DNA from: Treponemataceae bacterium | GTDB taxonomy: Bacteria; Spirochaetota; Spirochaetia; Treponematales; Rectinemataceae | Assembly: GCA_963667725.2 (NCBI GenBank) | Contig: CAXXHO010000005.1 | Span: 800,001 to 864,000 of the forward strand | Reading direction: 5' to 3' | Length of the DNA stretch: 64,000 nt | Shown here: in pieces, positions 14,934-43,193 of the stretch | Position numbering within the stretch: the first letter of the stretch is position 1 | How the letters are laid out: every line of letters starts with the position of its first letter | Translations under genes and position numbers: made by a program | Notes under the pieces: model-generated | Database searches by the model: none | What the model saw: only the letters and a program-made list of their open reading frames with translations | What the model was told of the DNA's origin: nothing

Positions 14934-14985
14934 TGTATGCCAGCGCACATAGTCAATGAATCTTTCATATGTGCTCTATCGAACA
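14934..14985. promoter_or_regulatory. Back-to-back pair of Crp-family operator-like sites
   Basis: Minus-strand TGTGCGCTGGCATACA (14934-14949); plus-strand TGTGCTCTATCGAACA (14970-14985), followed 21 bp later by TATGCT (15007-15012). Confidence 0.65.
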
Positions 14986-15128
14986 GATAAATTCCTGGCG
15001 TCGTCGTATGCTGAATTTCATTGAGCGGGGAATATGTAGGCCCGTATCCTGCCGATTTGAGGCATTTATACGTGACGGCATTGTAGCCTGCAGACGATCT
15101 GGAACAGATTTCCAGAAAGGAGCTAGAA

Positions 15129-15962
15129 ATGGCGAAGAAGTTGAAGGTCGCATTACTCGCGATCGCGGTGATTAGTCTCATTATAGGTCTCACGGCTTGC
15201 GCCGGGGCGCCAGCTCCTGTTGACAAGTCGAAAGCGGAGCTGGTTACGTACGTACCGGAAACCAAGGTTAAAAAAGCATATCAGGTGCTCAACGACGGGA
15301 TGTATGTGTTGGAAGGCGTCGTCAGGACGGAAGACGGACAGCTGGCCGACTGCGACATCGAAGAGATAAATACGATGCTGGTCTGGGGAAATTTCGCATC
15401 GAACAAGATCACCAAGGATGAGATGGCGAAGCTGGGAGAAGACAACATGTTTACGGCCTTGTTTAAAGGACATGGAACTGCCGTGCCTACTCAATTCGCC
15501 AAATATGTCCAAGTAGGGGATATAGTCTTCACCGCAAGCGCCGACGCTAATGGGCAGATCATCTATACATCCGATACGACCGGTGAAGTAGTTTCATATT
15601 TTACGAAGAGCGAAGACAACATAGCCTTGTTTTTCAAGGAGATGCGTTTCGGGAATTACTGGCTGCTGAAAAAAGTTGACAAGGGTTACGAAAAATTCGA
15701 AATCGCTTCTTTCTTCCAGGATATCCCAGGCGCCACTCTCGAAAAGAGCAAAAGCCAGAACAAAAAATATTGCATGCACTGGGACAACTGGGTTCCCAAC
15801 ATCTACAAAATCGAAACCTTCTTCAAGACAAATGGCTTTATCTCCGGGAACTTCAAACAGGGCTCCGACGGAACGTGGGCTGTCGCGGATGTCGTCACCG
15901 GAGCTACAATAGCTGAGTTCGAAGGATATGCCGGAATCCTGTACAAGGCGAACAGCAAATAA
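15129..15962 (+). CDS. Lipoprotein of unknown function with a C-terminal flavinylation-like motif
   Basis: Lipobox LTAC; DVVTGAT near the C-terminus; AAGGAG RBS. Confidence 0.7.
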   Translation: MAKKLKVALLAIAVISLIIGLTACAGAPAPVDKSKAELVTYVPETKVKKAYQVLNDGMYVLEGVVRTEDGQLADCDIEEINTMLVWGNFASNKITKDEMAKLGEDNMFTALFKGHGTAVPTQFAKYVQVGDIVFTASADANGQIIYTSDTTGEVVSYFTKSEDNIALFFKEMRFGNYWLLKKVDKGYEKFEIASFFQDIPGATLEKSKSQNKKYCMHWDNWVPNIYKIETFFKTNGFISGNFKQGSDGTWAVADVVTGATIAEFEGYAGILYKANSK

Positions 15963-16006
15963 AAACCGATTTATCATGTATCAGTGATTTGGATATACGA
16001 AGCAAG

Positions 16007-16047
16007 ACGGGCTGCCGACGATAGTGATCGTTTAGCAGCCCGTTTTT
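16007..16047 (+). terminator. Intrinsic terminator
   Basis: ACGGGCTGC/GCAGCCCGT stem followed by a T-run. Confidence 0.6.
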
Positions 16048-16132
16048 GTATCCGAAGCGTATGGTTGGTGCCACATAAACCTCGTCGGTTTTACGCCTGC
16101 CTATAAGGGAAAAAACGAGAAGTGAAAATACC

Positions 16133-16162
16133 TTGACGACGGCCGCCCTCGACCGGTATAGT
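16133..16162 (+). promoter_or_regulatory. Sigma70-type promoter for tRNA-Gly
   Basis: TTGACG-18 nt-TATAGT. Confidence 0.6.
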
Positions 16163-16205
16163 GACCTGTAAAAATCGCGTCGAGAGAAGCGACGCAGGTC
16201 CAATC

Positions 16206-16276
16206 GCGACCGTCGTATACCGGTATTACCCGAGCTTCCCAAGCTCGAGAAGCGGGTTCGACTCCCGTCGGTCGCT
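16206..16276 (+). tRNA. tRNA-Gly (anticodon CCC), CCA not encoded
   Basis: Acceptor stem GCGACCG/CGGTCGC, anticodon arm CGAGC-TTCCCAA-GCTCG, T-loop GGTTCGACTCC, discriminator T. Confidence 0.93.
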
Positions 16277-16373
16277 CTACGATAACGTCATTTTACGTTC
16301 GGTTTGGCGCTTCCGCCGGTTTTTCGATGGCTTCGCCGCCGCGCGCGTGGTAGAATCCCACGCGGAAACCCCC

Positions 16374-17375
16374 ATGGAAAAAATGTCAGCGCGGAAAGCA
16401 TCCGCCCGCCCACTTCTCTTCGCCGCCATACTATTCGCGCTCGTCGCGCAGTCCTGCGGGAACCTGTTCCCGCCTCCATCGCCTTACGACGAGAATCCGG
16501 ACGAGGCCGAGCGCCTGACCATACTGGCCGACATACATCTGCCCTATAAGGCTTCGAAGCTCGAAAACGCCGCCGAGGGCGAGGCGCGGACCGCCGCCAA
16601 GCTGGCCATGCGCGATGATATCAACGCCTGGACCGATACGAGTCGCGTCATCCTGACCGGAGACATGGTCGGCGAGCGGGGATGCCCGGATGAGTATGCC
16701 ATCGCGCTTTCCTATATTTCGGGCTTGAGCGGCCAGGTCCGCCCCATCGCTGGCAATCACGAGTACACCTATTCCGACGAGTTCGGCCCGACGGGGAGCC
16801 TCGTCCTCTGCGAGGCGGACGAGAGGGCGCGGAAACTGGAATATTTCAAGACCGCTATGGGATTGGAGTCCCTCCAGCGCGAAGAGGAGCTGGGCGGCTA
16901 CGAACTGATCTACCTTTCCTCCGATTCGCTCGACACGAGCCGCCGGGTCGGGATCTCGCCGGAGTCCCTCGCATGGCTCGACGATTGCCTATCCGCGCAC
17001 GCGTCGCTTCCGACGATTATTTTCTTCCACGCGCCGCTCAAGGGAACGCTAAACGTCAAGGGCAAGCCGGCTTCCGGAAATAGCGTCGCCCAACCCACGG
17101 ACGCGATCCACGAGATCCTCGGGCGCCATCCCCAGGCCTTCCTTTGGGTTTCGGGGCACACGCACACGAGGCCGAGCAACGCGTCCTTCGCGTCGCCAAT
17201 CAACCTGTACGATGGCCGCGTCATGAACATCCACTGCCCCGATTCGGATCGTATCGATCCTTGCACGAACTCCTTGTGGCTCTATCCCGACCATGTCCTG
17301 ATCAGAACCTACGATCATCGGCGAGGCGCCTGGCTCACGAGGCTGGACCGGCGCGTGGCGGCCTGGGGCCGTTAG
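16374..17375 (+). CDS. Calcineurin-like metallophosphoesterase, probable lipoprotein
   Basis: ADIH, TGD, GNHE, FFHAP and SGHTH motifs; signal peptide ending AQSC; start moved downstream of the tRNA (exact start uncertain). Confidence 0.85.
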   Translation: MEKMSARKASARPLLFAAILFALVAQSCGNLFPPPSPYDENPDEAERLTILADIHLPYKASKLENAAEGEARTAAKLAMRDDINAWTDTSRVILTGDMVGERGCPDEYAIALSYISGLSGQVRPIAGNHEYTYSDEFGPTGSLVLCEADERARKLEYFKTAMGLESLQREEELGGYELIYLSSDSLDTSRRVGISPESLAWLDDCLSAHASLPTIIFFHAPLKGTLNVKGKPASGNSVAQPTDAIHEILGRHPQAFLWVSGHTHTRPSNASFASPINLYDGRVMNIHCPDSDRIDPCTNSLWLYPDHVLIRTYDHRRGAWLTRLDRRVAAWGR

Positions 17376-17608
17376 TGTGCGGTAAGATCAATTCAACGAA
17401 GGCGGAATTAACGCGCTCCTTAGCGACAAGACAAGGCTTCCACACATGCTGCCAATTTCAGATCCTGTGAAAAACGAGGTGCGGGTGAACTGCAAGTGCC
17501 CGAAGGGGAGGACACTTCATATTATTGCAGATAACTATTCAATGCATATGACCAAAGAAGTGCGAGAGTATCTTGAATCCATTGATTTTGGATGATATGG
17601 CTTCCGGA

Positions 17609-17656
17609 GAGCTTCCCAAGCTCGAGAAGCGGGTTCGACTTTCGTCGGTCGCTCTA
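17609..17656 (+). repeat. Direct repeat of the 3' part of tRNA-Gly (att-like site)
   Basis: 48-bp copy of 16232-16279 with 2 mismatches (GACTCCCG vs GACTTTCG). Confidence 0.9.
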
Positions 17657-17857
17657 GAAACCAAAAGTCCGCGTAAAGCGAGCCTTTTCATTTTTACGGA
17701 AGAAATATCATAGTGAAGGAAAAAGTCTCGTTTGCATGGTTCCCCAATACATTATATATCGGAAATACGCCTTATAAAGTTATTTACGAGATAATGACCC
17801 CTCACCCAAGGCAAGCTATCCAATGCGATCAGGGTCAATTTTTAAGGTAGTATTTGC

Positions 17858-17905
17858 TTGACAACCAGAAAAATCAAAGACATACTCAAATAGCAAAACG
17901 TTTTG
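17858..17905 (+). promoter_or_regulatory. Sigma70 promoter plus LacI-type operator of the sugar operon
   Basis: TTGACA-17 nt-CATACT (17858-17886), then the CG-centred palindrome CAAAACGTTTTG (17894-17905). Confidence 0.7.
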
Positions 17906-17938
17906 ACAACGTTTGACAAAACCAAGGAGGTGAAAGTG

Positions 17939-19168
17939 ATGAAAAGGCTTGCCGTGTTCACTATTATTCTAGTGAGCGTTCTCATGCCGGCGTTCTCGGC
18001 GCCGACCACGTTGACTGTACTCTGGTTCAACGATGCAAATGAATCCGAAGTATTTAAAAATACGATGGCGGATTATGTGGCAAAGAATCCAAACGTCAAA
18101 CTGGATGTACAAGTCGTGGCTTTCAGCGCCTATGAGCAGAAGCTGAAGCTGATGATCGCGGGAGGCAATCCTCCCGATGTCGCCCGGATTACGAATAATC
18201 AGATTTCAGCCTTGATCGATGCATTATTGCCCCTGGACGGAAAAATTCCAGGCTTGGAGGAAATGAAGAAAAACTACCTGTCCGCTTCGCTTGCCTTCGC
18301 CCTGGATGGTAAGGGGAAGCTCGTGGCATTCCCTACCGAAGCGACCGCGAATGGTATGCTGGTGAATAAAACAGCCTTTAAAAACGCGGGAATCGATGTG
18401 GACGCGGTTTCGAAAACCTGGACATGGACAGACTGGGAAACAATTATCGCCAAGGTTGTCGCGGTCAACTCCAAGATGAAGTACGGATTGGCGGTGGATT
18501 TCACGCCCCATAGGTTTTCCACACTGATGTTCCAGCAAGGAGGTCATTTCCTGAATGCCACCCAAACCGGGATGGACTTTGACAACCCGGGAACTATCGC
18601 CTCGCTGCGTTTCTTCAAGAGTCTGCACGACAAGGGCCTGATGCCGAAATCAGTCTGGCTGGGATCGGAGAATCCCGCCGAGCTTTTTCAAGCCGGCCTT
18701 GTGGCATGCCATATCGGAGGAAGCTGGAATATCAACACTTATAAACAAAACGTAAAGGATTTCGAATGGGGCGCCGTCAGAATGCCTAAGGGAGCGATTA
18801 ATTCCTCGGTACCAGGAGGAAAATTCATCGCCACTTTCAAGGGAGGGAAGAACGAAGCCGAAGCCCTGCGCCTGATCACCGCGTTCGCGGACAAGGATCA
18901 CACATCGGCCTATGTGCGGGATACGTTCAATCTCTCGTCCCGCACGGACACCGTCGTAAATTACCCATCCAACAGCCGGGACTTCGCCATCTTCCTTGAA
19001 GAACTCAAGGTAACTCCCTCGTTTACCGCCGATGAGTGGAAAAATGTAGAACTGAACAAGGTTAGCACCTTCATACGGGAACAAATAGTGCAAGTACTGA
19101 TGGGAAATCTGACACCTGAACAAGCAGCCAAGGCGGTACAGGAAAAGGGATCTACTTATTTCAAGTAA
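17939..19168 (+). CDS. Carbohydrate ABC transporter substrate-binding protein (CUT1)
   Basis: Signal peptide, GGNPPDV motif, AAGGAGG RBS, followed by two permeases. Confidence 0.88.
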   Translation: MKRLAVFTIILVSVLMPAFSAPTTLTVLWFNDANESEVFKNTMADYVAKNPNVKLDVQVVAFSAYEQKLKLMIAGGNPPDVARITNNQISALIDALLPLDGKIPGLEEMKKNYLSASLAFALDGKGKLVAFPTEATANGMLVNKTAFKNAGIDVDAVSKTWTWTDWETIIAKVVAVNSKMKYGLAVDFTPHRFSTLMFQQGGHFLNATQTGMDFDNPGTIASLRFFKSLHDKGLMPKSVWLGSENPAELFQAGLVACHIGGSWNINTYKQNVKDFEWGAVRMPKGAINSSVPGGKFIATFKGGKNEAEALRLITAFADKDHTSAYVRDTFNLSSRTDTVVNYPSNSRDFAIFLEELKVTPSFTADEWKNVELNKVSTFIREQIVQVLMGNLTPEQAAKAVQEKGSTYFK

Positions 19169-19212
19169 TATCTCTTGGATGTGAAGTCGAGCAACAATCG
19201 GAAGGGCGGCGA

Positions 19213-20103
19213 ATGAGAAAAAAAACGAAAAACAGCTTTAATCAGGCAACGGCTCCTATTCTTTTTCTCTTACCGAATATGATAATTTTTTCGGTATTCA
19301 TTATCATTCCCGCCTTCCAGGGATTGCGCATGGCTGCCTATGAATGGGGAATTCTTTCTACACCACGTTTTATCGGATGGGCGAATTTCCTTGAGCTGTT
19401 GAACGACGCAGTTTTCTGGAAAACATTTTCCAACACCCTGATTTATTCATTGTTCTCGGTACCATTATTGGTAGCAGTTGCGTTGCTCCTGGCCTTCTTT
19501 CTGCAAGATAATTCGATGAAGGGTGTACGTACATTCAGGTCGCTGTTTTACATCCCTTCGTTGTTAAGCATGATCACTGTCGGAATAGCGTGGCGATTTA
19601 TTCTAAGCGACGAGATGGGCATCGCGAATTACCTGATAAGGTCCATGGGAGGGGAAGACATTCACTGGCTTACGGAGCCGGGCACTGCCATGCTGAGCAT
19701 CATTCTTATTACGGTGTGGGCAGGTGCGGGTTATTTCATGGTGATAATGATAGCCGGTTTTCAGGCGATACCGCAGGAGTTGTACGAAGCCGCCCGGATA
19801 GATGGAGCCTCCCCTCAGGATACTTTCTGGAAAATTACCCTACCCATGCTTCGCGGCACTATTTTAGTAACCCTCGTCCTGGCAACCATCAATTCTTTCA
19901 AGGCCTATGAGTTGATAATAGTCACCACCGGCGGCGGGCCGGGGTATGCCACGAAATTCATTGTCCAACAGGTGTACCAAGCCGCCTTCATGGAAGATCG
20001 AATGGGCTATGCGGCCATGATGTCCATCGTGTTGATGATCCTCATCTCCGTGATCACCGCATTCCAATTCGTTCTTACGGGGAAGAAGCAAGATTATGAA
20101 TAG
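19213..20103 (+). CDS. Carbohydrate ABC transporter permease
   Basis: EAA loop YEAARIDGA, multiple TMs. Confidence 0.92.
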   Translation: MRKKTKNSFNQATAPILFLLPNMIIFSVFIIIPAFQGLRMAAYEWGILSTPRFIGWANFLELLNDAVFWKTFSNTLIYSLFSVPLLVAVALLLAFFLQDNSMKGVRTFRSLFYIPSLLSMITVGIAWRFILSDEMGIANYLIRSMGGEDIHWLTEPGTAMLSIILITVWAGAGYFMVIMIAGFQAIPQELYEAARIDGASPQDTFWKITLPMLRGTILVTLVLATINSFKAYELIIVTTGGGPGYATKFIVQQVYQAAFMEDRMGYAAMMSIVLMILISVITAFQFVLTGKKQDYE

Positions 20104-20917
20104 ACGCGGCAAGCCTTTTTTACTTTATGCACTGATCGCGTTATTCGCGGCGATGACGGTGTTTCCGATACTATGGGCAGCGCTTTCCTCCTTTAAGCCG
20201 CAGTCGGAACTATTCACCGTTCCCCTTAAACTTCTCCCCTCTAGCTGGACAACGTCAAATTATGTTGCCGCTGTCGGGCAGGGTAATTTTCTACAATATT
20301 TTTCAAATACCGTGTTCGTAGCGGTGACAGCCACGCTCATCACGGTGACCATAAATCTAATGGCCGGATACGCGCTGGCCAAATATAAGTTTCCAGGCCG
20401 AGAGGCAATATTCACCATAATGCTGGCTACGTTGATGATACCGCTGCAAGTGATTATGGTTCCGATATTTCTCCAATTGAAAGCCCTCGGACTTCTCAAT
20501 TCGCTTTGGGGTATTATCATTCCCCCCGCGGCGACTCCCACCGGAATATTTCTCGCGCGGCAATATCTTCAGACTTTGCCCGATTCACTCATAGAGGCGG
20601 CCAGGATCGACGGAGCCGGAGAGCTTTTCATTTTTCGCAAAGTTATAGCGCCCTTGGCGAAACCGGTCATAGCAACTATCGCGATTTTTTCATTCATGTG
20701 GCGATGGAATGATTATCTCTGGCCTCTTATCGTGATAACGGACAATAAAAAACAGACTATGCAGCAAGCTTTGGCCAACTTTGTCGGACAACTTCAGATC
20801 AATTGGTCAAGTCTATTAGCCATGACGACGATCGCCATCATTCCCATGATCATAGTGTTTCTCCTTTTCCAAAAGCATTTCTTGTCAGGCATCACAACTG
20901 GCGCGGTAAAAGGCTAG
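20096..20917 (+). CDS. Carbohydrate ABC transporter permease
   Basis: EAA loop IEAARIDGA, WNDYLWP. Confidence 0.92.
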   Translation: MNRRGKPFLLYALIALFAAMTVFPILWAALSSFKPQSELFTVPLKLLPSSWTTSNYVAAVGQGNFLQYFSNTVFVAVTATLITVTINLMAGYALAKYKFPGREAIFTIMLATLMIPLQVIMVPIFLQLKALGLLNSLWGIIIPPAATPTGIFLARQYLQTLPDSLIEAARIDGAGELFIFRKVIAPLAKPVIATIAIFSFMWRWNDYLWPLIVITDNKKQTMQQALANFVGQLQINWSSLLAMTTIAIIPMIIVFLLFQKHFLSGITTGAVKG

Positions 20918-20920
20918 GAT

Positions 20921-23338
20921 ATGAAAAAAACAGTCGGGAATCTTTATGACTACAAATTGGATTCAGGGCAGGGAAATCATGCTCTCTTCACCGCCTTCGG
21001 AGAGGGAGGGAAAATTCATGTATCGTTCCATACACCCACTGTAATCAAAGTGGAATATGAATTTGACGGCATAAAAATCGCGCCGGAATTCAGGGAAGCC
21101 AGCTCTTTTATCACCTCGGGTGACTATACAAATCTGGTGGCACCCAACGTTTCTATAGAAGAAACAGACCTTGATTATTCACTGGCCGTATCAAATGGAC
21201 CACATCCTCCTACTATCGTGCGCATAGAGAAAAAGCATGGCACTCAGTCAGTTTATCAGGGAGAATTCCTCGTTCATGGCGGCAAGCTCGGGACTCATGA
21301 CACGGTTATTCCGACCTATCCGGTGCGATGCCTTTCCGAGAGCATGGATTTATCCCCGCTCGCGCGATTCAACTTCCCCCTAGCGGCCGAGGATGCATTT
21401 TATGGCTTGGGCGATAAGGCGGGACCACCCAACCGTCGCGGGTTTCGATTCAAGTTTTCCAATCGAGATGCCTTGGGCTACGACGCCGAAAAATCGGATC
21501 CACTCTACAAATCAATACCATTTTTTATAAAGAAAAATGTAGTCACCGGAGTCTGTTGCGGCCTTTTTTTCCCCTCCGCGTGGATCGAAGACATGGATTT
21601 TGGCAGGGAAAGCCCTTACTACTTCAAGGTCGATGTAAGAGGCGGGCCTTTTTCCTATTTCATCTTCTTAGGCCCGGCCTATCGGGACATTTTGGAAGCC
21701 TATTCCCGCATCACAGGTTTCCCGACGCTACCTCCGCTCTTCAGTTTCGGCTTTTTAGGATCTTCGATGAACTATGTGGAAGGAGACGATGCGGAGGAAA
21801 AAATAGAGCGGTATTTCAACAGGGTGGAGGAAGAAGAAATTCCTTGCGAAGGAATGTATGTATCCTCGGGATATTTAAAGGCTCAAGACGGAAAACGATA
21901 TGCGTTTCTTTGGAATAAGGACAAGTTTCCCGATTACCAATCATTTATCAGAAAGCTTTCTGGTCGAGGCTACAATTTATGCATGAACATAAAGCCCGGT
22001 ATACTCTGTTCGCACCCCTGGTATAAAAAGATCGCATCGAATGGATTTTTAATAAAGAATGCCGAAGGAAGGCCATACAAGGAATTCTTCTGGGGCGGGG
22101 AAGCTTCCTTCATCGATTTTGACAATCATTCAGCGGCAGCGTGGTGGAAATCCCAGCTTAGGGAAACGTATATCGAACATGGCTGTACGGGAATCTGGAA
22201 TGATAATAATGAGCTCGAGTTGGAGGAACCTGGACTTCCCGTATATAAGACCAAACAGTTGTACCCAGTTAAAATGGCCAAGGCGGCATACGAGGCATTC
22301 AAAGAATTCAATCCGGAAGAAAGGCCTTGGATTTATTCGCGCTCGGGATATTCGGGATTGCAGCGATATGCCCGCACATGGACAGGGGACAATTGCAGCG
22401 ATTGGAAGACACTGCAATTCAATCAATATATGGGGTTGTCCCTCGGTCTGAGCGGCATGCCCTTTTACGGTCATGATTTGGGAGGATTCTTCGGTGATCC
22501 GCCCTCCGAGGAGCTGTTGATGCGTAGCTGTCAGTCTGCCGTGTTTCAGCCCCGTTTCGTGATACATTCCTGGCGGGAAGATGGAAACCCTACCGAACCC
22601 TGGACCTTTCCCCGAGTCAAGGATCGAATTCGCGAATATATCCTCGAACATTACCGATTCATGCCCTATACCTACAATTGTGCGATCATGGCATCATTGC
22701 ACGGCTTGCCTATCGAAAGGCCGCTATTCCTGGAATATCCTGAAGACAGGCATCTGAATGAGCTGGATCCCCATTATATGTACGGGCCGTCAATTCTGAA
22801 AGTCCTCGTCGTTCGGGAGTCAGATCTGGCCACCACCGTACGATTTCCTTCCTCCGATTCCTGGTATGATCCGGTAGAACATTATCTATATCAACATGGC
22901 GGCAGCGCTCTGGTGAAAGTTCCCTTAGAAGGAGCGCGATGGTTCGCGAAGGCGGGATCAGTGATCCCGACAAGTCCTGGGCTTGTCAAGTTGAACACCG
23001 CCTATTTCGCGTTAGTCGATTTTATGGCATACCCTCCCGATAAAACCGAAGAGCGGGTGTTCACCTATTTTGAGGATGACGGCAAAGCTGAATGGAGCCT
23101 TGGTCGATACAACGAATGGGTGATTCATCTGGCTTACGACAAGAACAAGCATCATGGCACTATTAGAATTCATGAAGCGTACCATGGAGGAACAGATTCC
23201 GATCCTGATCGCGCATTCCGCTTTTCCCTTCCCCCTTCTTTCCAGTTCACCGGAAGCGCTGCAGCCGAGATTACGGTAGGACAACTTCATCTTGATGGAA
23301 CTTACGCATTGGATTTTGAGGGTGGCTATCACGGATAA
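20921..23338 (+). CDS. Glycoside hydrolase family 31 (alpha-glycosidase)
   Basis: DPLYKSIPF, nucleophile motif GIWNDNNE, acid/base motif TWTGDN, GHDLGGF. Confidence 0.9.
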   Translation: MKKTVGNLYDYKLDSGQGNHALFTAFGEGGKIHVSFHTPTVIKVEYEFDGIKIAPEFREASSFITSGDYTNLVAPNVSIEETDLDYSLAVSNGPHPPTIVRIEKKHGTQSVYQGEFLVHGGKLGTHDTVIPTYPVRCLSESMDLSPLARFNFPLAAEDAFYGLGDKAGPPNRRGFRFKFSNRDALGYDAEKSDPLYKSIPFFIKKNVVTGVCCGLFFPSAWIEDMDFGRESPYYFKVDVRGGPFSYFIFLGPAYRDILEAYSRITGFPTLPPLFSFGFLGSSMNYVEGDDAEEKIERYFNRVEEEEIPCEGMYVSSGYLKAQDGKRYAFLWNKDKFPDYQSFIRKLSGRGYNLCMNIKPGILCSHPWYKKIASNGFLIKNAEGRPYKEFFWGGEASFIDFDNHSAAAWWKSQLRETYIEHGCTGIWNDNNELELEEPGLPVYKTKQLYPVKMAKAAYEAFKEFNPEERPWIYSRSGYSGLQRYARTWTGDNCSDWKTLQFNQYMGLSLGLSGMPFYGHDLGGFFGDPPSEELLMRSCQSAVFQPRFVIHSWREDGNPTEPWTFPRVKDRIREYILEHYRFMPYTYNCAIMASLHGLPIERPLFLEYPEDRHLNELDPHYMYGPSILKVLVVRESDLATTVRFPSSDSWYDPVEHYLYQHGGSALVKVPLEGARWFAKAGSVIPTSPGLVKLNTAYFALVDFMAYPPDKTEERVFTYFEDDGKAEWSLGRYNEWVIHLAYDKNKHHGTIRIHEAYHGGTDSDPDRAFRFSLPPSFQFTGSAAAEITVGQLHLDGTYALDFEGGYHG

Positions 23339-23364
23339 CACATATTCATCAAAAGGATGTTCAT

Positions 23365-24378: not shown

Positions 24379-24388
24379 GGAGCAAGAC

Positions 24389-25252: not shown

Positions 25253-25310
25253 AAGAAAACACGTTGTTGATCAGGGGATTATCAAGTAGGATAATCCATA
25301 GAGGCTTAGG

Positions 25311-31771: not shown

Positions 31772-32194
31772 TGGATTCAAAAATTTCAGGCGGAGAAGAT
31801 AGAACGATCCAATCCAAATCAATTCTTTTTTATTTTATTCAATCTTAGTGCCTGCGTTCGCGCTGTCAAGGAATATATGACCATGTTTGAAATGTTATTT
31901 TTTGGATTTTTGCCGAGGTTTCACCGCGCTCGCATCGATCGCTTTTTTATAGCACGGAAAGCAAGCAAGACCGGCGGCGAGGCCTTGAAGGCGACCACTG
32001 AAAAACGCGGCATCAAAATAAGAAATGAAGCATGATTCCATTATTATTTATTTATATTATATAAAGTTATGCATATTGATCCTTAAGAAGACCAATACTC
32101 ATGCTCATTCTTCATGTCTTTCGCGGCGGTCCCTGCCCGTCATTCATAAGCACAGGCTTCGGCGGCGGCGCTGAAACATTCATCAAGGTCTCTT

Positions 32195-33397: not shown

Positions 33398-33415
33398 TCG
33401 GTGCGTCCTTCTCGA

Positions 33416-34594: not shown

Positions 34595-34837
34595 AAGAAC
34601 CTCCCGTAGACCGTTGCGATAAAGTCACGCTGCACGGAAAATGGATCCAACCAATCCTATGTTTCTATGCATCGATACATTCAAGCCTAGGCGGTTCGCG
34701 ATGTCAAGCTGAATTTTTCGATCTTTCGATAAAAATTGTCAGTATTTATGCCGCAAAAGCACCTACCGCCCTCGTCGACGAATTCCATATTGGCAGCGTA
34801 CCATACTGCGGTTATAGTAGCCTCAAGAGGAATACGC

Positions 34838-35878: not shown

Positions 35879-35947
35879 GTAAAGACTGGAATTCATACGG
35901 TATCGCGGTTTTTCAAGAACCAAAAAGGAGTCCATTCCCGATTGGTC

Positions 35948-35975
35948 TTGACTTTTCGGGAATACGCTCCATAAT
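35948..35975 (+). promoter_or_regulatory. Sigma70 promoter, likely giving a leaderless transcript
   Basis: TTGACT-16 nt-CATAAT ending 6 nt before the ATG at 35982; no Shine-Dalgarno. Confidence 0.5.
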
Positions 35976-35981
35976 AGTCAT

Positions 35982-37109
35982 ATGGAACGAAGCATCGCGC
36001 CATTTATCCTAAAAGATCTGCAAAAGAAAATCGTACTCGTTTCGGGACCTCGCCAGGTCGGTAAAACCACGTTGGCCAAGAACCTCATGAAAGAGTATGA
36101 CTACTTCAATTTTGACAACAGCGAACATCGTCTCGCGCTGAACGAGAAAAGCTGGGACAGGCGAAAACCCCTGGTGATTTTTGACGAGCTTCACAAGATG
36201 CCGGAATGGAAGACGTATCTCAAGGGGATTTTTGACGTTGAAGGAACAAAGCCCGCTCTCCTGGTGACAGGAAGCGCAAAACTTGACGCGTTCAAAAAGC
36301 TTGGGGATTCCCTTGCTGGTCGCTTTTTTTCCTATCGCCTCCACCCCTTTGATGTCAAAGAGGCATCCTCGCTCATAGAACCGGAAGAAGCCTTGACTCG
36401 CTTGCTCAAAATGGGAGGTTTTCCCGAGCCATTTCTGGAGAATGATCCTGTTTTCTATGCTCGTTGGAAGAAATCTCATATCGATGTCATCCTGCGACAG
36501 GATTTGTTCGACCTTGCGGCGATTCAGGATATTCTTTCCGTAGAGACCTTGATAGAAATGTTGCGAAGTCGAGTCGGATCGCCAATTTCATATGCTAATC
36601 TCGCTCAAGACCTGAAGAAAGATCCTAAGACGGTAAAGTCATATCTCGAGTTGCTGGAAAGTCTCTATATCATATTTCCGGTACGCCCATGGCATCGAAA
36701 CATCGCTCGCTCAATTCTAAAGGAGCCGAAATATTATTTTTTCGATACCGCTATGGTAAAAGGCGATGACGGAAAAAAGCTTGAAAACGCTGTCGCCTGC
36801 ATCCTTAAAAAGCAGTTGCATTACATGGAAGACACGCGTGGTGTCTCCACTGAATTATGCTATCTTAAGACGAAAAACGGGAATGAATTGGATTTTGTTG
36901 TGTCGCAGGATGGCGAATTGACTCACGCTTATGAAATAAAGTTATCGGATTCATCACGTTCGCCATCGTTTTCCCATTTTGAGGCTACGCTCGCCAAAAC
37001 GCACAGGATACAGATCGTCATGAATTGCGAACGCGAGAAGACTTTCCCGGACGGTCTTGAAATCCGAAAGGCCGCCGCCTATCTGGCCACGATCGATGTG
37101 AGCAGATGA
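35982..37109 (+). CDS. AAA+ ATPase with DUF4143-type C-terminus
   Basis: GPRQVGKTT, IFDE, LVTGS, SLAGR, PKYYFFD, ELDFV...YEIK. Confidence 0.88.
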   Translation: MERSIAPFILKDLQKKIVLVSGPRQVGKTTLAKNLMKEYDYFNFDNSEHRLALNEKSWDRRKPLVIFDELHKMPEWKTYLKGIFDVEGTKPALLVTGSAKLDAFKKLGDSLAGRFFSYRLHPFDVKEASSLIEPEEALTRLLKMGGFPEPFLENDPVFYARWKKSHIDVILRQDLFDLAAIQDILSVETLIEMLRSRVGSPISYANLAQDLKKDPKTVKSYLELLESLYIIFPVRPWHRNIARSILKEPKYYFFDTAMVKGDDGKKLENAVACILKKQLHYMEDTRGVSTELCYLKTKNGNELDFVVSQDGELTHAYEIKLSDSSRSPSFSHFEATLAKTHRIQIVMNCEREKTFPDGLEIRKAAAYLATIDVSR

Positions 37110-37136
37110 GAACGATGAAAGATTCCCTCTCACCGC

Positions 37137-37171
37137 GAAAGGCCGCCCGGAATGACGCCCAGGCGGCTTTC
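37137..37171. terminator. Hairpin terminator between convergent genes
   Basis: GAAAGGCCGCC...GGCGGCTTTC imperfect stem. Confidence 0.55.
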
Positions 37172-37188
37172 AGCATTTTTTGAAATTT

Positions 37189-38817
37189 TTATTTAATCAG
37201 CTTTATCACGTTTTCGGCCACGTACCACTTCGAGCCATTGAAAACCGCCACGCCCTCCGAATCCACCGCCTCGCCGTTCAGAGAGACGACGCTCTTGTTG
37301 CGGGGTATGCGCAGCGTTTTATCACCCTTGACGGCGACGAGTACGATGTTTTCCGGATCGGTCTTGTCCACCGAAACGGTGGCGCCTATCTTGGAGAACA
37401 TCGAGACCGCGTCCTGGAAGAGGCGGGAGGTCGTCGCCTCGAGATCGACGTTCATCGTCGCGGCCATATAGGTCGCGATATCGGTGTTCCTCACCAGGCC
37501 GGAGAGTCTTTTGCCGAATGGATCGTAGCCGTACAGGACGACATCCTCGCCGGTATGTCCGTTGGTGGTGAAACCGATCTTCGCGCGGGCGGCGACCATG
37601 GGACCGATCGCGTAATTCAGGGAACCGGACTTCGCGGCGGCAAGCGCGGCGACCTCGGCGTCCGTCAGGTCGGAGATTCCCATGTAGGCGGCGACGACTT
37701 CCTTTATCGCCTCTTCCTTGGAACGATCGGCAGCCTTGGCCGCGAGCGTCGCCGCGAGCGCCGCCTCGAGCCCTTCGCCGGTGAGGCTCGCTTTCTTGAG
37801 CGGATTGATGAAGGTGGTCCAGGAGGTCTTGTCGTAGCCGGAACTGATCGAGCGATCCCCTATCGAGATGCCCGAATTGCCATGGTCGGTAGCGGCGATG
37901 ACGACGGTGTTGCCGTCCTGTTTCGCGAAGTCGAGGGCCGCCTTCACCGCGTCGTCGAAGGCGATTATATCGGTGACGAGTGCGACTGGATCGTTCGCGT
38001 GCGCCGCCCAGTCGATCTTGGAGCCTTCCACCATGAGGAAAAATCCTTTTTTATTGGACGAGAGGATTTCGATGGCTTTAGCCGTCATTCTGGCGAGCGA
38101 GGGTTCGTTTCCCGAATCCCTGTCGATGTCGTAGGACATCGCGGTGGCCGTCTTGTTCTTGCCGAAGGTGCCGACGAGCCTGTCGCCCCTGAAAGCGCGC
38201 AAGTCCGAGGCGTTGTCCACGTAGCCATAGCCCCGCGACGCGAGAATGGCTTTCATGTCCTCTTTATCTTTTCTGGCTTCCGCGTTCAGGTAAGGCGTTC
38301 CGCCGCCGAGGATTACGTTGAGCCCGTTGTAGACAATCTGTTCGGTCAGGTTGTCGTAATTGGAGCGGGAGGGATCGTGGGCGCTGAAATCGGCCGGCGT
38401 CGCGTGCATGAACTCGCTTGTGCTGATTATGCCTGTAGAGCGGCCGCTCAGGCGCGCGGCCTCGAGAATCGTCGCCACCGGGCGCGATTCATCGGCCTCG
38501 GGAACCGCGACCCCGGGAAGCAGGTACAGCTTGCCTATGCTTGCCACGTTCCCTGTCTGGGAAGCCCAGCCGGTGGCAAAGGCCGATCCCGCGGGCGCGG
38601 AATCGGCGATGGTCCCATCTGAACTCCATGTGCTCACGAGACCGCAGGCTATCTCATCCAGGGCCAGCGGCGCTCCTTTATAGAACCTGGCCAGGGTAGT
38701 GCCCGCCACGCTCATGCCGTCCGGGATGAGCATTATCACGTTCTGGGCGAAAGCCCGCGTTCCCATGCCCAGAATCAGCATCGCCAAGACGACCCCGTTC
38801 TTCATGTTTCTTCTCAT
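37189..38817 (-). CDS. phoA: Alkaline phosphatase (PhoA family), exported
   Basis: NVIMLIPDGM, ADSAPAG catalytic Ser, HATPA, FFLMVEGSKIDWAAHAND, TDH, GHTGEDV. Confidence 0.9.
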   Translation of the reverse strand: MRRNMKNGVVLAMLILGMGTRAFAQNVIMLIPDGMSVAGTTLARFYKGAPLALDEIACGLVSTWSSDGTIADSAPAGSAFATGWASQTGNVASIGKLYLLPGVAVPEADESRPVATILEAARLSGRSTGIISTSEFMHATPADFSAHDPSRSNYDNLTEQIVYNGLNVILGGGTPYLNAEARKDKEDMKAILASRGYGYVDNASDLRAFRGDRLVGTFGKNKTATAMSYDIDRDSGNEPSLARMTAKAIEILSSNKKGFFLMVEGSKIDWAAHANDPVALVTDIIAFDDAVKAALDFAKQDGNTVVIAATDHGNSGISIGDRSISSGYDKTSWTTFINPLKKASLTGEGLEAALAATLAAKAADRSKEEAIKEVVAAYMGISDLTDAEVAALAAAKSGSLNYAIGPMVAARAKIGFTTNGHTGEDVVLYGYDPFGKRLSGLVRNTDIATYMAATMNVDLEATTSRLFQDAVSMFSKIGATVSVDKTDPENIVLVAVKGDKTLRIPRNKSVVSLNGEAVDSEGVAVFNGSKWYVAENVIKLIK

Positions 38818-38936
38818 TTTCACTCCTTATCCCCGCAGGGGTTGGCTGAGAATAGCTTGTGAATGTTAAAGGTCCTTTTCGTTTCCATGAAAAATTGGTA
38901 AATACGACGACACGCAATCGAAGCGATGAGAAATCC

Positions 38937-39800
38937 CTATGGCCAGTTGGGCGTCGCGGTTCTGTATATGTTCCAGGATCCGGTAAACGCGTTGGAGTCC
39001 AGGGTTATGGCCGTCTGGGCCAATAGCCTGCCGTTGACAACCGCCCCTGTGTTCACTTCAATTAGGGTTTTGCACAGGATGATTCCCTTGAAATCCGATG
39101 TGGTTCCCAAGGTGGTCTGTCCAGCGACCGGCCAGAAAACGTTCTTGGCCACAGCTCCGCCGCTCAACGTTACCATGGCGCCATTTCCCACGGTGAGATC
39201 CTGCGCTATCTAGAATATCCAGACATCGTTGGCGCCACCGGAGAGCGTGCGTCCCGACGCGTCGGTATAGGCAGTTTCCATGTCGCCTATGGCCGTCGTC
39301 AGGTTGGCCGGCGTAGGAACCGCATAATCTGCGGCGTAGATGCTTCCCGTGACGAAGGGCGATGTCGAGAAGACGTTAGTCGCATCCATTGAGAGCGAGA
39401 AGCCTGTGATGTAAGTGGCGGCGGCCGGGCTTACGCCGATGTCACCGGTGATGGCCGTCGTTCCGGAGGTTCCGAGTTCGACAGGCGACGGACCGGCAGC
39501 CATATTGACCCCTGTCGTGAAGTTCCAAACGTATTCCGCTTCCATCGCGTTGCCGGCAAGATCCTTGACGGCGACCGTCATAGTCGCCGTATAGAGGGTG
39601 CTGCTCGCAAGTTCGCTTTCAGGAGCGAGGGTAGCCACGAGATCTTCATAGGAGACCGCAGATGGAATGGGGGTAAGACCCTGAGCCAAGGAGAATGATA
39701 CGACATCCACGGTCGCGGCATCGTCGGTGGTTACAGGGTTAGCGCACCCGAAAACGAGCAAAGCCGCAAGAAAAATAGGTATAAAACAAAACTTTTTCAT
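38937..39800 (-). pseudogene. Degenerate Ig-like + DUF3494 (ice-binding-like) lipoprotein gene
   Basis: Lipobox VFGC; aligns with 41135-42214 but has three in-frame deletions and a TAG at 39210-39212 replacing Q of WIFQI; the frame continues to 38937. Confidence 0.8.
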
Positions 39801-39825
39801 ACAACGCACCTCCTGATCAGTGCCA

Positions 39826-40173
39826 TCAATGAATCGTGTTGGCGCCGAGGGTGACAGTCGCTGTGTATTCTGTGCTTGCCGCAAGGTCAGCGTTCGGGTT
39901 GAAAGTCGCTACCTTGGCCGCGTAGCTCACGACGCCGGCTACGGGAGTGACTCCCTGGGCAAGAGTAAAGGTAAGATCAGTAATCGTCGCCGAATCCATA
40001 TCTTCATCAAAGGTCGCCGTAACGCTGGCATTTCTCTCTACCGCGACCGCCGCATCGGCTGGACCCGTGGAGCCGATAGTGGGTGGAGTAAGGTCTTCTA
40101 TGTCCATGGGTGTATTGCAGCCGAACATCGCAAAGGCTGCCAATAGCAGCCCGATCAAAACTAATTTTCTCAC
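39826..40173 (-). CDS. Lipoprotein with a single, C-terminally truncated bacterial Ig-like domain
   Basis: GTG start after AAGGAG; lipobox MFGC; TPPTIGSTGPAD...ATFDEDMD...TFNPNADL, ending before the DLAGN strand seen in its paralogues. Confidence 0.7.
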   Translation of the reverse strand: MRKLVLIGLLLAAFAMFGCNTPMDIEDLTPPTIGSTGPADAAVAVERNASVTATFDEDMDSATITDLTFTLAQGVTPVAGVVSYAAKVATFNPNADLAASTEYTATVTLGANTIH

Positions 40174-40223
40174 ATTATGTATCTCCTTATAGTTACAAAA
40201 TACGCCTCTTCCGAAAGTCGGCC

Positions 40224-40315
40224 TGTTTGCCAGCACGCATAGGACATCTTCGCAACTCTTCATATGTAAATAAAATATTTACGTTACTTTCGCATCATCT
40301 GTGGGCTGTCGCATA
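40224..40315 (-). promoter_or_regulatory. Two Crp-family operator-like sites
   Basis: Minus-strand TGCGTGCTGGCAAACA (40224-40239) with TATTTT 21 bp downstream (40197-40202); minus-strand TATGCGACAGCCCACA (40300-40315). Confidence 0.55.
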
Positions 40316-40363
40316 GACTGAGCCTAGCGGCGAGCCGTATGGTTACTTCCAGAAAAGGATTGA

Positions 40364-40492
40364 TTCCAAGGAATCGTGCTCTGTCAGACCGCGATCCATC
40401 CGGGAACCGGGGTTAGCGCCAATGGCAGGCTTCTGTCGCAGACGGCCGTGACCATTGACGGCAGTACGGTGGATGAGCCCTCTATGCAATAG
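40364..40492 (+). pseudogene. Orphan C-terminal fragment of a DUF3494 gene
   Basis: Translates FQGIVLCQTAIHPGTGVSANGRLLSQTAVTIDGSTVDEPSMQ*, matching the end of 41135-42214; no start codon or RBS. Confidence 0.8.
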
Positions 40493-40517
40493 CCGAAATA
40501 ATCCAACCACTGAGTAC

Positions 40518-40569
40518 GCAGATAAAAGGCGGGACCGGGGCGAATGCCCCGGTCCCGCCTTTTATCTGC
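40518..40569. terminator. Bidirectional terminator, perfect 24-bp inverted repeat
   Basis: GCAGATAAAAGGCGGGACCGGGGC-GAAT-GCCCCGGTCCCGCCTTTTATCTGC. Confidence 0.8.
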
Positions 40570-40592
40570 CGCGCGAGTGTCCTTAGTAAGGT

Positions 40593-40937
40593 TTATTGTC
40601 GCGCGAACTCGCGAACAAGTCCGCCACCCGAAGGCGTCAATGTCATGATAGAATTCCCGCTATTGAAGGAATAGATTTCGACCTGGTCCTCCGAAGATCC
40701 GGCCCACGTCACTGTCAGTGTGGTACTGTCGGAAACCCATGTGCCCGTGGTGACAACACCCACGCTCAAAACCGTCGTTGTCCCAAGGCTGGTACCATCA
40801 GCATTAAAGTCATAATTCGTGGTTACCCCCAATGTTGTGTTTTCCCATACCCCTACGATCGGGTTGAATATTGAAGTAAGTGTGCAGCCCGAAATTACAA
40901 GTACGACAACTAATGCGAAAACAATGCGTTTTTTCAT
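40593..40937 (-). CDS. Small beta-rich lipoprotein (lipocalin-like)
   Basis: Lipobox ISGC, IVGVW, FNADGT and GTW motifs; GGAGG RBS before the ATG at 40937. Confidence 0.7.
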   Translation of the reverse strand: MKKRIVFALVVVLVISGCTLTSIFNPIVGVWENTTLGVTTNYDFNADGTSLGTTTVLSVGVVTTGTWVSDSTTLTVTWAGSSEDQVEIYSFNSGNSIMTLTPSGGGLVREFARQ

Positions 40938-41001
40938 AAAAATCCTCCGATTTTTACTTCTTTGACCTAAATAGACTATAGACACAACGAAGAACAACAT
41001 C

Positions 41002-41043
41002 TGTGCGGCAGCGCACATACTGATCTATGTGTGCTGCCGCACA
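41002..41043. promoter_or_regulatory. Back-to-back Crp-family operators driving divergent promoters
   Basis: TGTGCGGCAGCGCACA (41002-41017) and TGTGTGCTGCCGCACA (41028-41043); each has a -10-like hexamer 21 bp outward (minus-strand TATAGT 40975-40980; TATTCT 41065-41070). Confidence 0.75.
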
Positions 41044-41134
41044 GACCTTCCCTATTCAAATGCCTATTCTTTGAACATAGCGAAGGGCATACGACCATGA
41101 AATTTACCGCCCCTCTTTATCAAGGAGAACTTCC

Positions 41135-42214
41135 ATGAAAAAAATCGTAACATTAATGCTTCTATTGACGATCCTGTTCGTTTTTGGCTGCGCCAATCCA
41201 ATCATCGACGGAGAGACTGTCGCGCCGACGGTCAGTTCAACGCAGCCTGCCAGCGACGCCACGGCCGTCGCCAGAAATACGACCCTTACGGTGACCTTCA
41301 GCGAGGAAATGGATCCAGTGACTCTCAACGCAACATCTTTCACCTTATCGGAAGGATCGAATACGGTAGGCGGATCGGTGAGCACAACAGGCACCATCAC
41401 GAGCTTTAACCCAACATCAGACCTTGCGGCAAACACGCTCTACACGGCGACGGTTACCGTCGCGGCAACGGATCTGGCCGGCAATGCCTTGGCCGCGCAA
41501 AAGGTATGGAGCTTCACCACAGGCGGTACATCAGCCGCCGGTCCCGCGGTCGTCAATCTCGGAACGGCGCTGGATTTCGTCATTCTAGCCAAGTCAGGCA
41601 TCGCTACGATTCCGACTTCCGCCATAACCGGTAATATCGGCGTAAGCCCAATAGACCAAACGGCCATCACAGGCTTCTCGCTTGTCATGGATGCTTCGGA
41701 TACCTTTGCCACTTCATCCCAGATTACCGGAAGAGCCTACGCGGCAGACTATATTTCGCCCACTCCTTCCAAGATGACGACAGCCATCAGCGACATGGAA
41801 ACCGCCTACACCGATGCCGCGGGACGCGCGACGCCAGACTTCATCGAACTCGGCAGCGGCCAGATCGGCGGGCTCACCCTCGTTCCTGGACTCTACAAAT
41901 GGGGCACCAATGTCCTGATATCGACCGATGTCACCCTCTCGGGCAGCGCTAGCGATGTCTGGATCTTCCAGATTTCAGGCGGAATCACCCAGGCCTCAGG
42001 AATCACTGTCCACCTCGCGGGCGGCGCCCTTGCCAAAAATATTTTCTGGCAAACTTTTGGCCCAGTGGCTCTCGATACCACTGCACACTTTGAAGGCGTG
42101 ATAATCTCATCCACCGATATCACCCTGGCCACCGGGGCTTCCATCAATGGAAGGCTCCTCTCCCAGACCGCCGTCACGCTCGATTCGAGCACGGTTGTTC
42201 AGCCCGCGCTGTAA
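41135..42214 (+). CDS. Lipoprotein with an Ig-like domain and a DUF3494 ice-binding-like domain
   Basis: Lipobox VFGC; APTVSST.P...TFSEEMD...DLAGN; FVILAKSGI, AYTDAAGR, TLVPGLYKW, VWIFQI, NIFWQ, NGRLLSQTAVTLD. Confidence 0.9.
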   Translation: MKKIVTLMLLLTILFVFGCANPIIDGETVAPTVSSTQPASDATAVARNTTLTVTFSEEMDPVTLNATSFTLSEGSNTVGGSVSTTGTITSFNPTSDLAANTLYTATVTVAATDLAGNALAAQKVWSFTTGGTSAAGPAVVNLGTALDFVILAKSGIATIPTSAITGNIGVSPIDQTAITGFSLVMDASDTFATSSQITGRAYAADYISPTPSKMTTAISDMETAYTDAAGRATPDFIELGSGQIGGLTLVPGLYKWGTNVLISTDVTLSGSASDVWIFQISGGITQASGITVHLAGGALAKNIFWQTFGPVALDTTAHFEGVIISSTDITLATGASINGRLLSQTAVTLDSSTVVQPAL

Positions 42215-42255
42215 AAGATTATTTTTGAGTTGATGTATTAGTGCTAGAATAATTT

Positions 42256-42290
42256 GGGGCGCCTGCTGAGAATCAGCGGGCGCCCCTTTA
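42256..42290 (+). terminator. Intrinsic terminator
   Basis: GGGGCGCCTGCTGA-GAA-TCAGCGGGCGCCCC followed by TTTA. Confidence 0.7.
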
Positions 42291-42311
42291 TTTGCCGGAA
42301 ATCGGTAGTTG

Positions 42312-43067
42312 TTATATTGCGGTGATATCAGGCAGGAGACGGATGAACTCTTCCTTCACGACTTTATAGCATTCACATACTCGGGCTTCGAGCCCTGGCC
42401 TATCCAGAACGGTGAGGCATCCACGGCTGTAACTTATCAAGCCGGCATCCTGCAATTTTCCCGCGGCCTCGGTTACGCCTTCGCGTCGCACCCCAAGCAT
42501 GTCCGCGATCAATTCCTGTGTCATATTGAGAACATTTCCGGAGAGTCTGTCCATGCTCAGCAAGAGCCAACGGCACAGTTGCTGATCGATGCTGTGGTGC
42601 CTGTTGCAGATGGCGGTCTGGGCCATCTGGGAAAGCAATGCCATTATGTACCGCATGAAAAGATGCTGCATGGCCGGATCGCGGTCGAATTCCCGTTTCA
42701 ACAGATCGCCGGGCAAGCGATAGGCGGTTCCTTCGCTCTGAACCAGCGCACGGCTCAGCATCGACGCTCCTCCCATGAACAGGGCCACACCCACGACACC
42801 TTCCCTGCCAACAACGGCGATTTCTGCGGTGGAACCGTTTTCTAGCACGTTCAGCAGCGACACGATCGCGGTGGTAGGGAAATAAATGTAATGAGATTTG
42901 CCGCCCGCCTCGCTGATAGTCTCTCCCAGGGCGAGCTGTACGCGTTCAAGGTGGGGCAGGACTCTTTGATACTCAAGCTCGGGAAGGGCCGCGAGCAGAT
43001 GGTTTTGACGAGGATTGGGAGCGTAGGGCGGGCTCGATAAAATGGCCAAAAAACCCCTCCTTGCCAT
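42312..43067 (-). CDS. Crp/Fnr-family transcriptional regulator
   Basis: cNMP-binding-like N-terminal domain (AEIAVVGREG) and HTH MTQELIADMLGVRREGVTEAA. Confidence 0.93.
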   Translation of the reverse strand: MARRGFLAILSSPPYAPNPRQNHLLAALPELEYQRVLPHLERVQLALGETISEAGGKSHYIYFPTTAIVSLLNVLENGSTAEIAVVGREGVVGVALFMGGASMLSRALVQSEGTAYRLPGDLLKREFDRDPAMQHLFMRYIMALLSQMAQTAICNRHHSIDQQLCRWLLLSMDRLSGNVLNMTQELIADMLGVRREGVTEAAGKLQDAGLISYSRGCLTVLDRPGLEARVCECYKVVKEEFIRLLPDITAI

Positions 43068-43150
43068 TTATTTCATTTATTGGACAATATTTTCGCAAGT
43101 CAGAGCAAAGATGTCAATATATAAAAAATAAGGACTCGTCGACAACGCTA

Positions 43151-43193
43151 TGTGCGCTACCGCACAGATGGGCGCTCTTTTCGTCGATAGCCT
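43151..43193 (+). promoter_or_regulatory. Crp-family operator with a class II-like promoter
   Basis: Consensus site TGTGCGCTACCGCACA (43151-43166), then TAGCCT 21 bp downstream (43188-43193). Confidence 0.75.

Follow-up and report, generated by a model that had tools for sequence, protein, structure and literature searches.

Seven boxes and a Crp/Fnr-family regulator at the locus

In this study, we analyzed a 64,000-nucleotide stretch of the genome of a Treponemataceae bacterium (assembly GCA_963667725.2, contig CAXXHO010000005.1, positions 800,001 to 864,000), hereafter the window, which is C5:800001-864000 of a 4.22-Mb genome (G000) with the large contigs C3 and C5. Between positions 14934 and 43193, the window contains seven related palindromes, scored against the core pattern TGTGCG-N4-CGCACA and located by the window positions of their 16-mers, and a gene for a Crp/Fnr-family regulator, P0001 (42312-43067, minus strand), which matches PF00027 and PF13545 above the Pfam cut-off. 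The palindromes, referred to below as boxes, are probably binding sites through which P0001 would activate stress and surface genes throughout the genome.

A sequence-only reading of the window had described the seven 16-mers as the operators of a Crp-family regulon, and their positions and strands were verified. GA follows the 16-mer at six of the seven sites (GG at 40224), a TAnnnT hexamer lies exactly 21 nt past it at five, and all seven are intergenic, given gene starts with a ribosome-binding site (40173 and 40937). The core is exact in only two sites, with one mismatch in one, two in three, and four at 40224.

Box 1 (14934-14949, minus strand; TGTGCGCTGGCATACA followed by GA) faces a signaling cassette and has an orthologous box in G001, a related genome. 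Its predicted -10 element, GATCTT (14907-14912, minus strand), lies 21 nt past the box and is weak, retaining the A and final T of TAnnnT, and it is conserved in G001. The cassette comprises a CHASE3-PAS-PAS histidine kinase (12517-14805), a single-domain receiver protein (12144-12515), which is likely co-transcribed across a 1-nt gap, and a receiver and HD-GYP protein (10485-12140) with intact HD and GYP motifs, a predicted cyclic-dinucleotide phosphodiesterase; all three are on the minus strand, and the kinase and receiver were assigned by Pfam. Box 2 (14970-14985, plus strand), with the predicted -10 element TATGCT (15007-15012, plus strand), faces a lipoprotein gene (15129-15962, plus strand). 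This lipoprotein matches no Pfam family, and a distant resemblance to FMN-binding proteins is a lead only. Boxes also precede its homologs in G001, G020, and G452.

Box 3 (40224-40239, minus strand) is the most degenerate, with TATTTT at 40197-40202, and box 4 (40300-40315, minus strand) is also degenerate, with TATTTT 22 nt downstream (40272-40277), one base beyond the usual spacing. They lie in front of two truncated lipoprotein genes on the minus strand, one Ig-like (Big_5; 39826-40173) and one Ig-like and ice-binding-like (DUF3494; 39210-39800). Internal deletions and early stops mark this pair (39210-40173) as decayed copies of the genes at C5:1326479-1327600 and C5:1325298-1326458, respectively, which form an intact pair at C5:1325298-1327600.

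Box 5 (41002-41017, minus strand) has a perfect core and the -10 element TATAGT (40975-40980), and its predicted target is a small lipoprotein gene (40593-40937, minus strand). The label "lipocalin-like" given to this protein was not borne out, a sub-threshold match to DUF5640 being the only hit. Just past the gene, two perfectly inverted copies of 23 bp flank a loop of 6 nt (40518-40569), terminator-like in both directions. Box 6 (41028-41043, plus strand; -10 element TATTCT at 41065-41070) is predicted to serve an intact Ig-like and ice-binding-like (DUF3494) lipoprotein gene (41135-42214, plus strand; Pfam E 2.8e-72), which a terminator-like hairpin (42256-42286, plus strand) separates from the regulator gene. 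Box 7 (43151-43166, plus strand) has a perfect core and the -10 element TAGCCT (43188-43193). It is divergent from the regulator gene, is retained in the congeneric genome G002, and has as its predicted target a receiver-PAS hybrid histidine kinase (43211-44740, plus strand; Pfam). Boxes precede homologs of this kinase in the loci L054, L055, and L056 and in G452. Comparative evidence of this kind supports the genes listed by the sequence-only reading as putative box targets. Two further box-like sites were rejected: 31638 falls where a peptidase gene encodes its signal peptide, and 44304 falls inside the kinase gene.

Genome-wide enrichment of the box

When its halves are 4 nt apart, the core occurs in the whole genome in five perfect and 13 one-mismatch copies, whereas spacers of 0-3 and 5-8 nt yield no perfect and 0-6 one-mismatch copies. 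A matrix built from the seven sites, which carries no -10 information, gave 19 matches of at least 18 bits on C3 and C5, consisting of the seven training sites and 12 sites outside the window, as against 0-10 matches for eight column-permuted matrices. The box is thus enriched over permuted matrices in a spacer-specific manner, the outcome of a check that the sequence-only reading had itself proposed. The genome holds approximately 18 boxes altogether, and 18 sites together give the consensus TATGTGCGCT(A/G)CCGCACAGA.

TAnnnT is present at exactly 21 nt in nine of the 12 high-scoring sites outside the window. With C3:346760 omitted, the frequencies are 9/11 for these sites and 5/539 for other positions (p about 3e-17); the omitted site is a doubtful 18.2-bit match without TAnnnT at 21 nt. 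Another doubtful site, C5:932979 (minus strand), is a 17.5-bit box-like match with TACCTT at 21 nt, before a transposase-like open reading frame (ORF) of 551 amino acids.

Chance matches, repeats, or RNA hairpins are scarcely conceivable as explanations of the sites. Although palindromes of 6 bp can fold, one box was scored as a terminator-like hairpin, and two of the window sites are weak, the enrichment is specific to one spacer, the flanks are unrelated, the distance to the -10 element is fixed, and there is no Rfam match.

Conservation across phyla and class II-like geometry

The box was then scanned in the best 80 of 155 loci with regulator homologs (1.04 Mb; Spirochaetota, Pseudomonadota, and Acidobacteriota). 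Ten of these loci are from spirochaete-type bins, some with the same proteins as in the family genomes described below, and 70 are from Pseudomonadota and Acidobacteriota. The own-genome matrix gave 160 matches of at least 18 bits in the 80 loci, compared with 0.6 for permuted matrices, and 71 of the 80 have at least one site. No match was found in 41.6 kb around other Crp types. This second check suggested beforehand therefore also shows enrichment of the box near homologs of the regulator.

A symmetric matrix identified 193 sites in the 70 non-spirochaete loci, of which 93 have TAnnnT at 21 nt, as against 1-21 at other offsets. Minor TAnnnT peaks were observed 16, 22, and 27 nt past the 16-mer, and some of them may be repeated homologous promoters. 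When 91 sites were oriented by the -10 element alone, the left flank was TA and the right flank had G in 69, A in 87, and C in 51. The fourth box position is looser (G in 54/91), and G6, C11, and G12 are conserved. The ideal site reads TA-TGTGCG-CTAG-CGCACA-GA(C). Compared with the symmetric CRP consensus, TGTGA-TCTAGA-TCACA, both of its halves are changed at positions 5-6 and nowhere else.

At class II CRP promoters, the site is centered at -41.5. The boxes have a fixed distance to the -10 element, and a poor -35 hexamer is partly covered by their downstream half: CAGAnn occupies the -35 slot if the spacer is 17 nt, retaining GAC of TTGACA. The palindrome appears directional because its right flank overlaps the sigma-70 -35 hexamer. 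The position of the predicted -10 element would place the box center at -41.5, and the GAC flank resembles what is left of a -35 hexamer, as expected under class II activation. Since the downstream half covers a poor -35 hexamer, these promoters would depend on an activator. The class II-like spacing put forward by the sequence-only reading thus holds for five window sites and for the outside and cross-phylum sites counted above; box 1, with GATCTT, and box 4, one base off, depart from it.

The overlap with the -35 slot would also suit a repressor that blocks this region, with the genes derepressed under stress. We consider this highly improbable, because spacing exact to one base in three phyla would be needless for a repressor, a poor -35 slot is expected of activator-dependent promoters, and the related regulator BerA activates its targets (PMC3584217, excerpts).

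Co-occurrence of box and regulator in the family

Among 69 family genomes, 13 carry the RREGVTEA-type regulator branch to which P0001 belongs. Nine of the 13 hold 2-14 exact boxes, and the other four have 1-5 one-mismatch boxes, three of these genomes having boxes on the regulator's own contig. Among the 56 genomes without the branch, 52 have no exact box, three have one each, and G452 has four. Two or more exact boxes are therefore found in 9/13 genomes with the regulator and 1/56 without it. G416, counted as a non-carrier with one box, has a contig-end fragment of the regulator. The boxes of G452 (L196, L199, and L202) precede homologs of the same targets, the lipoprotein at 15129 and the hybrid kinase, and, the assembly being 88% complete, a missing contig is the simple reading of this exception.

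The genome under study holds two members of the branch, P0001 and a paralog with 81% identity (G000:C3:1242765-1243508). In the recognition helix of the paralog, Lys replaces the DNA-reading Glu; this private change is found in none of the 80 homologs and is absent from the G001 copy. G002 lacks the paralog between the same two boxes, yet keeps 13 boxes. Both observations suggest that P0001 is the likely reader of the box, and the paralog may be non-binding or dominant-negative. The co-occurrence in 69 genomes and in the homolog loci backs the earlier proposal that the neighboring Crp/Fnr protein is the putative reader.

The box could have another reader, either the C3 paralog or an alternative sigma factor whose -35 element would be CGMACAGA, with P0001 a mere neighbor. 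Such a reader would fit a directional motif with a better conserved right half, the boxes of G452 without a detected regulator, and the presence of a second paralog. However, both halves are conserved as a palindrome, with the asymmetry confined to the flank over the sigma-70 -35 hexamer, the boxes follow the P0001 branch across phyla and are not found around other Crp types, and G002 has boxes without the paralog. We therefore regard another reader as highly improbable.

Features of the regulator P0001

P0001, whose translation likely starts at residue 7 (43049), has an N-terminal cyclic nucleotide monophosphate (cNMP)-type β-barrel and a C-terminal Crp helix-turn-helix with the recognition helix RREGVTEA, as previously noted. 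Its structure model matches the folds of GlxR, NtcA, Clr, and CRP, and a search among solved structures found no close relative (best E 9e-6). In CRP, R180, E181, and R185 read G2 and the G4:C pair (PMC10187061, excerpts), which fits the retained TGT, the looser position 4, and the new G6, C11, and G12 of the box. R180 and E181 are retained as R195 and E196 in P0001, the position of R185 is occupied by Glu (E200), and there is an extra, invariant R194. Thus, R195 and E196 may read the TGTG part, and the loss of R185 together with R194 may go with the replacement of AT by CG.

The cyclic AMP (cAMP) phosphate-binding residues Glu72, Arg82, and Ser/Thr83 are absent from P0001 in the alignment to GlxR, being V94, M103, and L104, and position 94 is hydrophobic in all 80 homologs. 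Because P0001 lacks the Glu and Arg with which CRP binds the phosphate, cAMP or cyclic GMP (cGMP) is unlikely as its input. C154, H158, C231, and C233 are invariant in the 80 homologs. Instead of the RExxxR helix and TGTGA-N6-TCACA site of CRP and GlxR, P0001 and its box have REGVTE and TGTGCG-N4-CGCACA. The hallmarks of FNR are N-terminal Fe-S cysteines and an ExSR helix (PMC3590769, excerpts); P0001 has no cysteine before residue 154, and its helix differs.

The regulator gene has a sigma-70-like promoter (43089-43117, minus strand; TTGACA-17-GAAAAT with a TG extension), which is not at the class II distance from box 7. Class II self-activation was not seen at the window locus, unlike in 21 of the 70 non-spirochaete loci, where a box faces the regulator gene. 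The closest homologs of P0001 are labeled Spirochaetes/Rectinemataceae, and the branch has at least 8,000 members, all 8,000 candidates having scored at E ≤ 1e-20. It is found on plasmids and islands, e.g., pKLC102. In the pKLC102 locus (L132), six boxes lie round the Crp homolog at 9109-15382, one of them facing a large glycoside hydrolase 94 gene.

Predicted regulon

Elsewhere in the genome, boxes precede a csbD-ytxH-ORF-catalase cluster, genes for a DUF5670 protein and an RNB (RNase II-type) nuclease, three more DUF3494 lipoprotein genes, and genes for small secreted proteins without Pfam matches. In other genomes, 97 of 198 first-downstream ORFs, chosen by eye so as to leave out duplicates, Crp genes, and doubtful frames, were scanned for known families. 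The matches include BON (5), CsbD (4), DUF5670 (4), ice-binding (4, one in a gammaproteobacterium), and GGDEF/EAL (2), as well as receiver or PAS proteins, OsmC, ferritin, Usp, and STAS; about 40 ORFs had no match. Glycine-zipper genes are also among the box targets in other phyla.

The genes csbD, ytxH, katE, osmC, and osmY belong to the classic general-stress sets under Sigma-B or sigma-S. CsbD, YtxH, catalase, OsmC, and BON-type proteins all occur among the box targets and, with DUF5670 and ferritin, suggest a general-stress plus surface program. The sequence-only reading had proposed a surface-remodeling program tied to cyclic-dinucleotide turnover. Surface lipoproteins are indeed among the targets, but this proposal was too narrow, as the stress genes are spread over the genome and only one of the approximately 18 boxes, that at 14934 with its weak promoter, serves a cyclic-dinucleotide enzyme. 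Motif matches in the genome number about 18 for GGDEF and 10 for HD-GYP. G002 is without the whole CHASE3/HD-GYP cassette, suggesting that cyclic-dinucleotide turnover is an accessory arm. The reported response of the relative BerA to cyclic di-GMP (PMC3584217, excerpts) lends the cyclic-dinucleotide link indirect support.

BerA and the Burkholderia loci

BerA activates the bep genes, and cyclic di-GMP (c-di-GMP) enhances its DNA binding; the available part of this report gives no BerA binding motif (PMC3584217, excerpts). Its gene was located in the Burkholderia cenocepacia record NZ_CP091013.1 by the published RpoN site of berA (PMC5552954). BerA and P0001 are 48% identical over 224 residues, share an identical recognition helix (MLGVRREGVTEAAG) and the CNRHH and CECY motifs, and both lack the cAMP contacts of CRP; thus, P0001 belongs to a BerA-like branch, and box-like sites occur in the BerA locus. 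However, a FastTree tree with a weak backbone puts P0001 in a clade that excludes BerA, so that the two are not orthologs by this tree, and the same B. cenocepacia record holds closer homologs of P0001 (66% and 63%). BerA, itself controlled by RpoN/BerB, drives exopolysaccharide genes, whereas the predicted targets of P0001 are lipoproteins and stress genes and its own gene has a sigma-70-like promoter.

We scanned the bep loci of 14 Burkholderia records, which are kin, with a matrix built without these loci and a threshold of 9 bits. Boxes precede the acetyltransferase-manC unit (14/14), the ACP operon (14/14), berA (10/14), a hydrolase gene (9/14), and a β-helix gene (6/10), and none was found before berB (0/14) or an internal ligase gene (0/14). 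The published bep gene order and orientation occur in none of the 14 records, and a second paralog lies in the bep locus. As candidate BerA sites, these boxes are suggestive only.

The exopolysaccharide genes beside berA vary between species in order and origin. In the berA-bep loci L138 and L144-L170, several boxes are followed, one base later, not by TAnnnT but by TG-n-TCTAAT, TG-n-TTCAAT, or TG-n-TCTACT, a possible sign of another sigma factor.

Genomic context

The CHASE3/HD-GYP cassette and the lipoprotein gene lie in a variable block (about 8950-16170) adjoining tRNA-Gly(CCC) (16206-16277), which is present in G001 and missing in G002. G001 lacks the 38.9-44.8 kb block, with boxes 3-7 and the regulator gene, at the syntenic position, and G002 lacks part of it. 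Spirochaete regulator proteins nest among proteobacterial ones in the tree, whose backbone is weak. Gene content and phylogeny suggest that the module was likely gained horizontally, and it is patchy in the family. The region 50272-63951 contains ordinary origin-region genes (dnaA, dnaN, recF, dciA, rnpA, yidC, and jag), followed by the rnf operon.

Discussion

We propose that a P0001 dimer would bind the box, centered some 41.5 bases upstream of the start sites predicted for sigma-70. Its regulon would comprise Ig-like and ice-binding-like lipoproteins, the csbD-ytxH-catalase cluster, DUF5670, the RNase II-type nuclease, small secreted proteins, the hybrid kinase, and the CHASE3/HD-GYP cassette. 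The boxes are likely the real operator of an unstudied and widespread Crp/Fnr branch, and the class II mechanism itself is textbook.

Several observations weigh against this proposal. Two of the window boxes (40224 and 40300) are degenerate and stand in front of decayed genes, and G452 (88% complete, 420 contigs) has four exact boxes with no regulator found. The Fisher p value of 1e-7 for the co-occurrence in the family overstates the association, as the genomes are kin and the IUPAC pattern was tuned on sites of G000 and its relatives. The BerA-shifted promoters of bepA/wza and bepB/wzc have strong boxes in only 1/14 and 0/14 records, respectively, and five right-half strings searched for in a B. 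cenocepacia differential RNA sequencing table did not lead to a full box in register. Furthermore, as BerA is only a sister branch, its ligand may not carry over to P0001.

The input is the weakest step of the scheme. We tentatively suggest c-di-GMP, the reported input of BerA; if so, a negative feedback loop would run through the HD-GYP cassette. It is quite possible, if short of probable, that the same activator and box respond to something other than a cyclic dinucleotide: the Cys/His cluster might bind metal or sense redox, or activity might follow the protein level and the hybrid kinase. The invariance of the four Cys/His residues, the catalase, OsmC, and ferritin targets, the recurrence of PAS hybrid kinases and receivers beside the regulator, and the single box at a cyclic-dinucleotide enzyme, despite the many GGDEF and HD-GYP matches, all favor such an input. 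On the other side, BerA has the same Cys/His residues, yet is reported to be c-di-GMP-responsive (PMC3584217, excerpts), and both kinds of sensing may coexist.

The P0001 system resembles several known ones in part. It shares with Escherichia coli CRP the fold, a TGTG...CACA core with a 16-bp span, the R180/E181 equivalents, and the predicted -41.5 geometry. The E. coli site, TGTGA-N6-TCACA, and its base contacts are described in PMC10187061 (excerpts); the box differs in having CG rather than AT at positions 5-6, and P0001 in the replacement of R185 by Glu, the absence of Glu72, Arg82, and Ser83, and a C-terminal CECY extension. Clr of Sinorhizobium meliloti binds cAMP and cGMP and recognizes HGTYHC-N4-GRWACA (PMC10187061, excerpts). 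Its site shares with the box the GT-N10-AC frame, the 4-nt variable spacer, and conserved sixth positions, although these are C6/G11 rather than G6/C11, and its helix is RPKVNR rather than REGVTE. The CRP-like protein MrpC of Myxococcus xanthus directly controls the phosphodiesterase gene pmxA (PMC8844925, abstract), which parallels the proposed control of a cyclic-dinucleotide phosphodiesterase gene from box 1. Unlike P0001, MrpC is a developmental regulator. It reportedly recognizes a different site. The predicted regulon overlaps those of Sigma-B and sigma-S in CsbD, YtxH, catalase, OsmC, BON, and ferritin, but its control appears to rest with a Crp-type activator acting on sigma-70-like promoters, not with an alternative sigma factor.

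A literature search, which did not extend to curated regulon databases and logos in figures, found, among the papers listed, none with the TGTGCG-N4-CGCACA motif or the RREGVT helix, and nothing linking Crp to CsbD/lmo0937, BON, or DUF3494. The available parts of PMC3590769, PMC8510549, and PMC10187061 describe no such motif or Crp branch.

A broader and rather doubtful generalization is that this mobile Crp/Fnr branch is a portable general-stress master switch, doing the job of Sigma-B or sigma-S with the housekeeping sigma factor through one box in at least three phyla. It would be gated by c-di-GMP or a Cys3-His site, the box would also be the binding site of BerA, and spirochaetes would have recruited ice-binding-like lipoproteins and the HD-GYP loop.

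With a defined box, regulons can be predicted in hundreds of genomes, and the biofilm regulator BerA gains a directly testable candidate site. P0001 is a first candidate for the control of DUF3494 ice-binding-like genes, and its predicted regulon suggests that classic general-stress genes may be wired to a Crp-type activator.

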